Made by a program: the position numbers and the translations under genes
Notes under the pieces: model-generated
Database searches by the model: none
Seen by the model: the letters and a program-made list of their open reading frames with translations, nothing else
Told to the model about the DNA's origin: nothing
In this document: positions 24,401-55,631 of the stretch, in pieces
How positions within the stretch are numbered: the first letter of the stretch is position 1
Layout: every line of letters starts with the position of its first letter
Assembly (NCBI GenBank): GCA_964016885.1
Contig: OZ024740.1
Location: 243,908,001 to 243,972,000, forward strand
Length of the DNA: 64,000 bases
Direction: 5' to 3'
DNA from: Eledone cirrhosa
Taxonomy: Eukaryota

Positions 24401-27400
24401 ACCGGATCAGTCCCACACGCGACAGCAACTGTTCGACATAGCTCCACAAGTCAGCAATGCTCGGGCACTGAACGAGTGCGTGCACGACGGTTTCGTCGCT
24501 CTGCGCGCATCTCGGACAGGCTCGGCTGACGGCACTTCCATGCCTGTAGAGCTTATCTCGAACCGGCAGGGCTCCCCGGTAGCACTGCCAGGCCAGGGAT
24601 TTTTTGAAGTTATCCATAGGCCCTGGGCTGAAAGTTCTCCGGAAGAGAGCAAACAGCTGTTCTTCTTCGACGCCCAGGATCTCTCCGAGAACGTCGTCGC
24701 ACCTCCCCTCCACTAGTCCTCTATAGAACGCCGAGGTGGATGTTCCACCGATACTGGTGCCCAGCTGGCAGAGGGCAGTGAGCGCCTGGAGACATTCCAG
24801 TTTCCAAGCGTTATCCCTCGGTCTTTTTCTGACCCAGGACTGCAGCTCCGTCAAGGAGACGAGCAGTGGGAAAACGTGCCTGGCGAACGGCGACCACACC
24901 TGTTCATCAAGGAAGCACCAGAGATGTCGCAGCCTCAGCGCATGTTTGCGCATCATCAGCCATGGCATGCCCAGTCCTCCACGTAACGGGTGTTGACATC
25001 AGATAGATCGTCTGACCATGGGAGCGCGTCCCTTCCACAAAAAGCGGAAGAGGAGGCGCTCCATTTTGGTGAGAGTTGGGCTGGAGCAAGGGACGACGGT
25101 GAGGCGGTAGCAGATGACGGATGCGATGTACGCATTCGCCACCTCCGCCCGGCCTTTCAGGGACAGCTTCCTCTCGGCCCATTTCTGGGTGAGGGAGGCC
25201 ACCCTGTTCGTCACCTCGTTCTAGTTTTTCTCCATCTGGAGGTGCGGTCCGGAGTGAGAAGGGGGGAGAGAGCAACAACACCATTAAGAAAAGTAAGCGC
25301 AACAATAGACAAACTATCTGGTTCTCTCCTCCCTTCTCACTCAACGTTAAAACCAATGTAGGAAAAACATTTCTAGCCCTCTTAGATAGACACTTCCCCA
25401 TAGGTCATAAATACCGCTCCATCTTTAACCGACACAAAGTTAAACTAGGATACTCCTGCGCTAAGAACATGAAGGCCCACATCACCAGCAGCCCTAGGAG
25501 CAACACCCCACCAGGCTGCTCTTGCCGTAAGCCTGAAGCTTGCCCCTTTCAACAGCAATGCAACACACCAGCTGTAATCTATGAAGCTGTGGTCACTTCC
25601 AAACGACCAAACAAACCACAGGAGGTCAAATCCTATGTGGGCATGGCGGAGGGCCGATTCAAGGAGCGTTTCCCGAATCACCAGTCTACCTTCAGATACC
25701 CGGACAGACGTTCATCCACGAAACTCGCGAGCCATGTATGGTCCCTCAAGGAGTCAAGTATAGGCTACTCCATCAATGGAAAGCCATCACTAAGTCCAAG
25801 CCATACGCAAGGGGAAATCCGACGTGTGGCTTATGTATTGACGAACGAATAACTATTCTCAAGAGATTACGCAATAGTGATTGCCTAAACACGAGAAGTG
25901 AATTTTTCACACGTTGTCCACACGTCACCAAACATCTATTGCATAACTACAAGGCTCCGGACTGATTCTTTGTATTTTTAATTTTATTTTAATTTTATTT
26001 TCAACCTAAAAACTTTCCGGACTTTCGCAGTTATCTCCCTTACACCTCTCGCATGCAGTCTAGTATTGCCTGTGTGAAGTGACCGAGTTTCTGCGCATGC
26101 GCGTTCGTACGGTTGTCCTTCCTGTTCCTATAACCATGCACATCCCGAGCTGAAGATCTGCGAAGGTGAAACAATTGTTCTCGGTATGGTGAACTAACTG
26201 TTGTGTAACCACTTCTACCTAACTCGTCCCTTGGACTGAGTGCTCTACCACTACGGATATTACCTTCCAGTGTTCCACCACTATATATATATATATATAT
26301 ATATATATATATATATATATAAAATAAAGTTAAATAAAAGTCAAATGATTAAAATTTAGCTTAGTTTATTACTGCTATATATATTTCAGTGACAGCGATC
26401 TTTGGCTGTGACCTCTTCAGGCAGTTTGAATTAGTATGGTATAGACAAGTACATATGTTGTTTAGGTGTATAATATTGTCAATACTCTGATATGCCAAGT
26501 TCCTTGTTGGGTTGTTATTTCATTGAGGAACTGGAATCATATATATATATATATATATAGTATATATAGTATATATATATAAAACAAGTTTAAACGATAT
26601 TATATAACAGGATATATCGAGTGAGAAACTGCTAGTATTTTGTACATATATACAGAATAAATAATATGTAAATAAATATATATACTTCAAGATAGGTGAA
26701 TTGCCTACCATTCCCTAGACAGATCTGTTTCTAGAAATAAAAAACAAAAAGCAAAAAGAAAAAACTATAAATTTCAGTAATTAGTATCACTGACCAATTA
26801 TAGATTTTGGTAATAATCATCCTAAGACCTTAAATCCCGTCATTAGTAAGGTTCGGTCTTCACTAAATGCATCTCATATATCTTACACTGCACAAAAATA
26901 CTACTCATCTACTGAGGGAGGAAATTGTGAAGAGGTTCTCCACATGCTCATTTATTAGATTAATTTCATAAATGAAAATAAATCCACTGATGTTGAATGA
27001 TTTATCATAAATTGTTATCTCCGTTTCAAGCGGGAACCTTAACAACCCCCCCCCCTCTCTCTCTCTCTCTCTCTCTCTATATATATATATATATATATAT
27101 ATATATATATGGGGTGGTGTATGTATGTATTGGTAAGTAACCCAGTACAACCTGTACATGGTCAGATCGTCGGCAACTAAACCGGCAACTCCGCTTGGTA
27201 AGGAGGGTGATTTGGGGGTAGCCTGTGGGATGAAAAAGAGAGGAGGCACTCAGGAGAACAACGGCCATCGAATAAAGTTTTTTTTTTTGTGGTGTGAGAG
27301 ATTCCTAGTCTTCATTAAGACATCTCTCTAGGAGAAGGTCACTCTGATGTAAAACCTGTGACTTCGTTTGCATCCAATGATGTAGACCAGTTCTTCTTTT

Positions 27401-30400
27401 TGGGCAAATGCATTCGATGTTCAAATTGTGAGTGTGGATCTGTGAAAAGCCTTTCCTCACTTTAAAAAAGCTTCAAGTACAGGCATCGCTTGATATGTGA
27501 CATTTTTGTGATGCATGGTATTGCTGGCCATAGGCAAGTCCCCAGCAAGACTAAAAAGCCACGTCCGTGATGCTCATCCTTAAGTATCAAGCGATGGCAT
27601 TATTCGAAATCAAGTTGCAGCCATCATGTATGTATGCATGTACGTATTTATGTACGCTTGCATGTATGTATGTACGTATGTATGTACGCATGTATGTACG
27701 TATATATGTACGCTTGCATGTATGTAGGCATGTATGTACGTATGTATGTATGTATGTACCTATGTATGTAGGCATGTATGTACGTATGTATGTATGTACG
27801 TATGTACGTATGTATGTATGTACGTATGTATGTATGTATGTATGTATGATTATCAACAGATGGTGTAATGAGGGAGTTGCAAATAATGACGGGCTGGATG
27901 GAGGGGGGAGAGAGAGAGAGCGTAAAGGACAACGTACTCAATTGTTATAAATCAATGTTACTGATGAGATTAATTTATTTCAAATATCACATGAGTTCCC
28001 ATGTGATTGCCAACTAATGTAGCATGTGTGTGTATGTGTGTGTGTGTGTGTGGGGGGGGGGGGTTCGTGTTTCGTGATATAGTCATAATTAAATCATATT
28101 TCTCCACAAATTATATTTCACAGCCACTCCAACTGAATTAGAAATTACCGCTTAGATTTCTTATAAAGATTTCCTAATTATATATATATATATATATATA
28201 TATATATATATTTATTAAAATAACAGATTAAAGTTTTAGCAAAGAATCGCTGGTTTCACCCTTAACGGGATCTTCAGAAGATCCGTTAAGGGTGAAAGCA
28301 CCGATTCTTTGCTTAAACTTTAATCTGTTATTTTAATAAATATTTGCTCTACGGTTCTTATATATTTGATATATATTTATCCTTATCCAGCCCTCTTTGG
28401 ATTTTAGTCTTTGAATTTATTATTATTACTATATATATATATATATATATTATATTATATATATATATAGATTTAGAAAAATAACCAACGCCAAATAATG
28501 TATTCTATAAAAATGTCAAAACAACAGATGGGAATCTAATTACTCACTGCTACCAAAAATTCTCACTGCTATCAAAAAAATCTCTATCCACTCCCTTAAC
28601 TATTCTTCTAAAAACTTCACCCCTCCCTCTTAATATTCTCTATAAAAATCAAACAGGTTCTCAATAAAATTATTCTGATGAAATGACAGTTGATAATAAC
28701 ATTGAAATATTGAGTGTCTGCATAATTAATACTTTGTAGATAGCAGCTGTTTTCAGGTTATGTAACTGTTATTGAAACACGTGTCAATAAATTCCTTTTA
28801 ACTGAACTGTATCCATTTAAATCCTTCTATATATACATATATATATATATATATATATATATATATATATATATATATATATATATATATATATATATAT
28901 ATATATATATATGGGAGGAGGTTATATGTTCGTACATTTCAGATCGGCCCTCCCACTCGGTGCCAAGTTCGGATACATAAGGAACGAACTGGCACGTATC
29001 CGGAACAAATGCACCGACGCTAGAGACCGAGACACACACACCACACATTTCCTGGAAGTACTCAAACTGAACGGATACACGACATCTACCACAAACCGTG
29101 CCAGAAAGAACAGAGGACACCACACCCGAGGCACTAACACTTGCTTCCTGAAGCTCCCACACTTCAGTGAAGAAACAACAACAGCCATCCGCAGAGCTAT
29201 CAGACGAAAGGGACTAGATATCCAACTGGCCCACTCAGGCTCTTCTCTACGCGGACACCTAACCAAAAGAGACCCCACAAGACATGACAACTGCTGGAGA
29301 CTAGCCAACTGCCCCATCAACGACACAGACCTATGCCACCAGGCTTACGTCGTATACAGACTAGAGTGTGACAAATACAACAACTTCTACGTAGGTAGCA
29401 CCACCAGACCACTCCACATAAGAATAAAAGAACACCTCAATACTAACGCTTCCTCATTTAAGAAACACCTAGTTAAATGCAAAAACACCGACAAAACCAT
29501 AACAGTTAGGATAGAAACTAAGGAAAGAAACCTCGGCAATCTTAGAATTAAGGAAGCACTAATTATAGACAAAACACAACCACCAATCAATAATAGACTA
29601 GAATTCAACACCCAATTTATAACTTGATAGAGCTTCTAGCCCCATATTTACACCCCCCACACACACGCACACACGCACGCACACACACACACGCTTACAC
29701 CTCCACTTATTCTCTCTCACACATACACACACAAAACCAATTCTAACACGAGATAACACCTATCCCCCACATTTACGTATAGACATATCTTCTCACACTC
29801 ACACACACACACTCACATACTTACACCTTCATGCATTCTCCCACACACTTAAACAGGCATGTATATAAAAAAAACCCAAAAAAACAAAAACAAACCCCTT
29901 TTAAAGGGAGACTACTCTTTATCCACCTAATCTTAACTCTTTGACATTAGAGATAGAACAGATACTCTATACCATTTCCTGTCAGCATGACTTGGCAAGC
30001 TATTTAGAACACTGGTTTGACAGCTTTACTTCCCTCTGAAGAAGAGATATTATCTCGAAAATTAAGGACATTTAAATAAATCGAAGGTAAAAGACTAATT
30101 GTCAACAATATCTTTTGCTTTTGCATTCTTTATCCTATGTCGATACCTGCATTGTTTTGGCTTTATTATACATATACAAACGTTTATATATATATATATA
30201 TATATATATATAGTATTTTTTTATACTGTCCACATTCTTCTCTATGAATATTGGGTGCTAATTTCGGCATACCGCCTCTGGAAGCACCATAGCTACCATT
30301 ATACACAAGTATATATATATATATATATATATATATATATATATATATATATATATATATATATATATATGTATGTATAGTATATTTGGCAATATGCCGT

Positions 30401-55475: not shown

Positions 55476-55565
55476 TATATATATATATATATATATATAT
55501 ATATATATATATGTGTATATGTTATATTATTAAATAAATGGAAACTATATTTATAAAACCATATT

Positions 55566-55631
55566 TATTTCATTATATATATTTCGGAGATATCATATTA
55601 ACAATATGCTATGCCTTCCTCAGACAAAATA
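55566..55631 (-). ncRNA. minimal type I hammerhead ribozyme
   Basis: tattttgt CTGAGGA aggcatagcatatt-gtt-aatatgatatctcc GAAA t-atat-a TA atgaaata. Confidence 0.75.

Follow-up and report, generated by a model that had tools for sequence, protein, structure and literature searches.

The stretch of DNA analysed here (the window) comprises 64,000 nucleotides (nt) of Eledone cirrhosa contig OZ024740.1 (243,908,001-243,972,000, forward strand). Seven hammerhead motifs were located in it, every one on the minus strand. They belong to type I and lie in the 3' pseudo-long terminal repeat (pLTR) of Penelope-like elements (PLEs) of the Hydra clade, and the lineage to which they belong carries an unpaired C at the fourth pair of helix II that is probably under selection. 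In the four main copies CUGANGA is followed by three pairs, a C·C mismatch at pair 4, more pairs, GAAA and UAUAUAUA, after which comes the 3' strand of helix I; the succession GAAA-TATATATA and then helix I is common to all four.

The copy of family B (26371..26425) has the helix II strands GGU-C-ACAGC and GCUGU-C-ACU with the mismatch at 26410·26391, a predicted cut after 26376 and (TA)n joined 54 nt downstream. In the copy of family A2 (43498..43562) the mismatch is 43544·43521, the predicted cut follows 43506 and the (TA)n junction lies at +52, which is also its distance in the family D copy (46179..46259; C·C 46234·46210, predicted cut after 46195). Family A1 is represented by a slightly decayed copy (55566..55631) in which pair 1 is A·C and pair 8 is G·A; its mismatch is 55613·55589, its predicted cut follows 55574 and its TA tract starts at about +61. 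All four, including the mismatch, had been reported in a preliminary description of the window and were recovered there. The same holds for an A2 copy at 46030..46097 with a G12→C change, predicted to be inactive, which retains C·C, and for two diverged relatives with C·A at pair 4. One of these, at 8414..8494 (C·A 8476·8437), has helix III TATGTA and a helix I rich in wobbles, and no link to an open reading frame (ORF) was established for it. In case of the other, at 56209..56330 (C·A 56315·56229), helix III is CGATCG with a GUA triplet, the core halves are about 90 nt apart, and three paired positions of helix II are followed by C·A, A·C and A·C; a copy in locus L142 with the same helix III and the same first three pairs has C·C.

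The helix II sequences, previously described as unrelated, are homologous. Over motif and flanks the 43.5 kb copy is 75% identical to the 55.6 kb copy and 85% identical to the G12-mutated copy at 46.06 kb, which for this reason is not an independent case. Helix II is present in the minimum-energy fold of only two of the four main copies. Three of these reach an upstream TA tract at 118-242 nt and the fourth abuts the reverse transcriptase (RT) fragment of another element, thus the main window copies are short stubs.

No Rfam hammerhead was matched in the window at E<=5, where only repeat-driven microRNA matches appeared, and no hammerhead model was matched at gathering score in eight loci including three outgroup loci. 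Due to the fact that the outgroup loci were unmatched as well, Rfam generally misses Hydra hammerheads.

Host elements and helix III

The motif is situated on the sense strand, 3' of an ORF encoding RT and a GIY-YIG endonuclease (EN), and a second hammerhead copy occurs either inverted at the 5' end (loci L031, L033-L035) or in tandem (L036). Family A1 flanks ORF P0001 in L035 and family A2 a Hydra ORF in the tandem locus L036; family B is tied to a Hydra ORF in L044 with no TA tract in between, and family D to an ORF in L112. P0001 is a single ORF with a YRDD-type RT core followed by YVG…F..R…E…N of the C-terminal GIY-YIG endonuclease. It further contains CNCRDRSKC (CxCX5C linker), CDLC (CxxC) and CRH (CxH) and no CCHH motif, and the L034 ORF contains IRWRAF (RWK-like) and SDKTNNLY (DKT), in agreement by eye with the Hydra rows. 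Further Hydra traits are the insertion in (TA)n, a pLTR with hammerhead, and tandem or inverted copies. Insertion in (TA)n is the rule, almost without exception, for the Hydra clade (Craig et al. 2021, PMC8557442), and the targeting of these tracts is thus a described property.

No Pfam family was matched by P0001. It has 784 relatives at E<=1e-20; among those with a name the best is a hypothetical protein of Argonauta hians (41% identical). In an RT tree, rooted at the midpoint with half of the outgroup rows dropped and with relatives that include no named Hydra references, own-genome rows and four P0001-relative proteins group apart from 27 metagenome rows (100/100). Families whose ORFs are joined to a hammerhead without an intervening TA tract range down to 48% identity. 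Nematis and Neptune were considered as clade and dropped, the ORF motifs being those of Hydra. A non-LTR retrozyme, i.e., non-coding tandem monomers of about 300 nt, was likewise rejected, as the copies are instead lone, inverted or ORF-flanking; among the tandem repeats of the window no retrozyme-type array was present.

The suggestion that the motifs are hammerheads of PLEs and that their helix III is palindromic is supported. (TA)4, formerly regarded as a mark of the subtype, is the commonest helix III by copy number and is not obligatory. TACGTA accounts for 1,303 genomic matches (control 0) and CRATYR for 502 (control 14), a TGCGCA family and CGATCG palindromes exist, and several families with palindromes other than TA keep C·C. 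Constant in helix III is an 8-nt palindrome followed by A. According to computed energies, helix III of a monomer comprises two pairs at net cost and that of a duplex yields -3.2 kcal/mol. With only 2 bp in the monomer, cleavage would need two ribozymes that share a weak 8-bp helix III, and we infer dimeric cleavage, which is consistent with PMC6765202.

The unpaired C at helix II pair 4

The genome (3.0 Gb) was searched with CTGANGA-N14-44-GAAATATATATA, a pattern blind to the mismatch, with the reversed pattern as control. It gave 49,066 matches (reversed 164). With C required on both sides of pair 4, 44,550 remained (reversed 5), and with C opposite another base 1,793, 268 of them C-G; 2,958 lack the 5' C, many of those listed reflecting a C→T change or a false start; the three pair-4 classes overlap slightly. 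The counts with and without the C·C requirement are both far above chance. The first 100 of the 268 C-G matches are spread across all main families and resemble point changes. A pattern with any helix III starting in S yielded 2,214 matches and its control 2,426, which is noise except for a few families. In viral contigs nine pattern matches were found, none of them called as hammerhead, and relatives of the ORF were also absent; the only match in prokaryote genomes lacks helix I and is taken as chance. The approximately 45,000 motifs are unmatched by Rfam in the tested stretches and lie outside the published descriptor.

From fetched loci 186 distinct copies were called with pair 4 unscored, in a set enriched for exceptions by design. 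At a threshold of 0.2, 21 clusters contain at least two copies (17 C·C, two C·U, one C·A and one C-G, the latter consisting of loci fetched for carrying C-G), and the 5' C of pair 4 is present in all 21. With a looser threshold C·C is found in 13/18, two of the others being hammerheads of different layout. Pair 4 is unpaired throughout a set of 20 hand-picked family representatives, with 16 C·C, three C·A and one C·U. Of the "invariant C-C" initially postulated, the invariant 5' C therefore stands and the invariant partner does not: constant is the unpaired 5' C (C10.4), and the earlier wording was slightly too strong.

Pairs 2 and 3 are paired in 20/20 representatives with 8 and 12 two-sided changes, respectively, pair 3 being U-A, A-U or G-C, and pairs 5-7 retain a bias towards R-Y, Y-R and A-U (R, purine; Y, pyrimidine). 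The covariation score of the representatives, which relatedness of the sequences can inflate, is 0.708 vs 0.278 for shuffled (0/500) and <=0.154 for slid alignments. Two-sided changes occur in 16/18 pairs and the helix III palindrome is paired to 98.8%. Helices I, II and III are supported by covariation, with helix I open (type I), and in the RNAalifold prediction helices I and II form while pair 4 stays open; 13 columns are invariant, the core being partly fixed by the search pattern.

For an outgroup, 78 related metagenome loci gave 54 hammerhead calls, 45 of them distinct. C·C occurs in 0/45 of these Hydra hammerheads and pair 4 is paired in 43/45; GUH precedes the cut, not AUA, in 44/45, and helix III has 9-10 nt in 41/45. 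By eye, no C·C at pair 4 was seen in the 56 aligned rows of PMC4209133 or in the 26 published Hydra rows of PMC8557442. Literature searches on a hammerhead C-C mismatch returned no paper within a coverage that did not extend to Lünse 2017, which treats PLE variants and may hold it. AUA is named among the natural triplets (PMC1636495).

Judging from covariation, the 20/20 unpaired representatives and the 0/45 in the outgroup, the mismatch looks selected, as the preliminary description had proposed; the unpaired C is lineage-specific and probably selected, with a putative functional role. Several observations weigh against this interpretation and against docking in particular. The 91% of genomic copies with C·C reflect inheritance from master copies, not selection. 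The representatives were picked after the data had been seen, are mutually related, and do not take in hammerhead families of the same genome with another layout. The 3' partner of the C varies between C, A and U, no helix I base covarying with C10.4 was found, and U1.7, present in 56/80 contexts, is often simply paired. The inverted pair L072/L073 has C-G in both arms, so C-G may not block an insertion round. A quick, unfinished EN tree, which was not used for the question of origin as one window row is mislabelled and several ORF-hammerhead links run across TA tracts, splits the families, and a single origin of the variant is thus not supported. Finally, so far only one genome carries the variant.

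Element ends and rival explanations

The preliminary description had suggested that the cleaved (UA)n end could couple cleavage to priming at (TA)n. The data do not bear this out. A (TA)>=6 at the cut is present in at most 266/44,550 copies and the remaining 99.4% lack it, and copies starting at the cut are few (72 vs 15,499), with no pile-up of 5' ends. Of 20 inspected (TA)>=6 cases, 11 end at the cut, six resume after a slipped repeat, one is ambiguous and two are not of this family. Instead, 80/103 copies near a TA tract join (TA)n at +45 to +59 from the cut; the caller behind this count required helix I, therefore the cut-site test was run separately on the 44,550 copies. In case of tail-bearing copies 21/28 end at +130 to +149, and inverted pairs consist of one short and one long arm in 18/21. 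Two fixed ends, at about +50 and +140, are found in L001, L033, L034, L036 and others. The short end is followed after 3-10 nt by an RCTC…GAGYRCT hairpin and has a TA overlap of 0-5 nt (14 comparisons); in L036, the sole tandem copy reading on, there is another such hairpin past the long end. The hairpin is also present in 35/40 outgroup motifs with enough flank. DNA contigs have loose ends as in the genomic copies, and the genomic copies nearly always retain the uncut junction. The cut (UA)n end is likely not the primer of insertion.

AWUAAA occurs within 30 nt of the cut in 69/113 own and 17/48 outgroup contexts, with shuffled means of 26 and 3, the copies not being independent. An AAUAAA overlapping or adjoining helix I on its 3' strand occurs in the window at 43495-43505, 55563-55573 and 26365-26375 (minus strand), where ribozyme folding and polyadenylation could compete. 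A donor-like GTAYGT is located upstream of the core, mostly at 25-45 nt, in 57/186 copies, e.g., around 43585-43592, 46262-46270 and 55663-55670 (minus strand) and at L036:4221-4228, and a pLTR intron preceding the next ORF may contain the hammerhead. Contigs of four runs compared to the tandem copy are DNA-like, and among 15 of 22 joints listed there is no GT..AG joint over the hammerhead.

We consider it probable that the motifs represent Hydra-clade PLE pLTR hammerheads, one lineage of which carries an unpaired pair-4 C likely under selection as the place where helix I or the element-encoded protein docks. Two ribozymes would share the weak 8-bp helix III for cleavage, probably helped by protein, for which a Poseidon element whose hammerhead cleaved only with protein (PMC11167929) is a precedent, and cleavage would trim tandem or read-through transcripts beside the AAUAAA signal. 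Reverse transcription would begin internally, on uncut RNA, at the two hairpin-marked sites; two nicked (TA)n strands could use one start site each and give rise to the inverted arms, a twin priming of both target strands that we infer from these ends. It is tempting to speculate further, as a decidedly more tentative proposal, that C10.4 and its R-Y, Y-R and A-U neighbours replace loop 2 as a tertiary or protein-docking module which lets an RT-endonuclease dimer switch cleavage, with the two downstream hairpins setting twin priming. We take C10.4 to occupy the position at which loop 2 starts in canonical hammerheads.

The main rival to docking is a tuned brake, in which the mismatch weakens helix II and keeps the ribozyme off on template RNA until a chaperone or partner acts, with no specific contact. 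The computed cost of the mismatch relative to C-G (approximately 6 kcal/mol), the tolerance of A or U opposite the C, an amplified C-G family not having been seen, the descent of genomic copies from uncut RNA and the slowness of PLE hammerheads in vitro (PMC4209133) all agree with a brake. A brake, however, need not depend on a particular pair or on particular bases, whereas all representatives have the same position and the same 5' C, and pairs 5-7 retain their bias; we regard it as rather improbable. Less probable still, and in our opinion unlikely, is that C·C is an accident of inheritance or a signal at the level of DNA or splicing without a role in the RNA fold. Common ancestry of the families, other Hydra elements that do without C·C and the upstream GTAYGT would be in accordance with it, but the C stayed while flanking pairs turned over by compensatory transversions, and both Cs keep fixed distances from the core halves although the spacers range from about 20 to about 100 nt.

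The least credible alternative is that the (UA)4 3' end left by cleavage pairs with nicked (TA)n and serves as primer for reverse transcription; as main route it is largely refuted by the rarity of (TA)>=6 at the cut. The inspected sites that end there correspond to about 0.3% of copies and would allow a minor route, but slippage, deletion between TA runs or later insertion into (TA)4 would also be expected to produce such rare cases. Helices III other than (TA)4 occur as well, and hammerhead cleavage leaves a 2',3'-cyclic phosphate. In addition, hammerhead mutants of a Poseidon PLE insert normally in vitro (PMC11167929).

The preferred interpretation, a selected docking site in a pLTR hammerhead, touches on the role of PLE hammerheads, which is still open according to PMC8557442 and PMC11167929. 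The lineage provides a handle for mutagenesis, namely one conserved nucleotide outside the core, together with C·A and C·U as naturally occurring variants and outgroups that lack the modification, and the two fixed ends before the hairpins predict where Hydra reverse transcription would start and how inverted arms would originate.

Neighbouring features and comparison with known systems

The (TA)20 target tract at 26282..26321 is common, tail-to-tail, to the family B stub and the 3' part of a different Hydra-type element on the plus strand (25295..26281), which comprises an endonuclease fragment, a CTC…GAGTGCT hairpin and its own hammerhead at approximately 26145-26184 without C·C. A separate PLE with an RT fragment at 43637-44770 (plus strand) carries a minimal hammerhead of the published type at 45366-45410 (plus strand) with an extra G after A9, a perfect helix II and GAAA-GGAC-UA. 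Another own-genome family without C·C has core halves about 80 nt apart and a CTCGAG-type helix III (L056:2455-2557, L100:1156-1258, L124:340-442). At 46436-46495 (plus strand) the helix III CATG of a hammerhead-like motif leads into a long (TA)n, and in L298 and L311 two related CUGAAGA…GAAA sequences without paired helix II end directly in (TA)n, possibly as the end of another element.

A long near-perfect inverted repeat by a TA tract (55264-55389, plus strand) is part of another repeat, with an Rfam microRNA match far below threshold. Exon-like pieces of a Rab-type small GTPase with duplicated 342-bp units are located at 14853-16531 (plus strand). Several RT elements resembling long interspersed nuclear elements, with pieces of zinc-knuckle ORF1, and fragments of other PLE clades occur at 17336-25404 and 57079-62213 (minus strand) and at 4526-5869 and 28821-29627 (plus strand).

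The ribozyme type and the clade are known; what appears to be new, judged by sequence comparison, is the mismatch variant, in one genome. With the Hydra-clade PLEs of PMC8557442 the elements share the C-terminal GIY-YIG, the RWK-like, DKT, CxCX5C, CxxC and CxH motifs, the (TA)n target, the 3' type I hammerhead, the inverted 5'-truncated arm and the "tail" at one end. The published Hydra hammerheads and the metagenomic ones have a paired helix II, mostly a helix III of 9-10 nt, and GUH, whereas those described here have the unpaired C10.4, the 8-nt palindrome and mostly AUA. Also unlike that clade as far as described there, the 3' untranslated region extends to about 1.3 kb, the tail measures about 90 instead of 30-40 nt, and the copies number about 45,000.

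In common with the minimal hammerheads of PLEs (Cervera and de la Peña 2014, PMC4209133) are type I, the location in pLTRs, a long helix II, the palindromic helix III, the predicted dimers and the mostly lone truncated copies. Their consensus differs in an extra nucleotide after A9 and in G10.1-C11.1, and the descriptor given there (stem II of 3-7 bp, loop of 3-10 nt, GAAANNUH) cannot match the present motifs. The type I hammerheads of animal retrozymes (PMC7229834) likewise have a 2-bp helix III with palindromic tetraloop and are of the dimer type; unlike these, the hammerheads of E. cirrhosa are ORF-associated and have neither a 4-bp helix II with conserved loop 2 nor short tandem monomers.

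The Poseidon element PAc of Anolis (Frangieh et al. 2024, PMC11167929) belongs to another clade and shares two internal RT starts bounding the tail, uncut RNA as template and AT-rich targets. Different from PAc, the ends reported here are derived from genomic junctions, and each of them is situated 5' of a repeated RCTC…GAGYRCT hairpin with a TA overlap of 0-5 nt.

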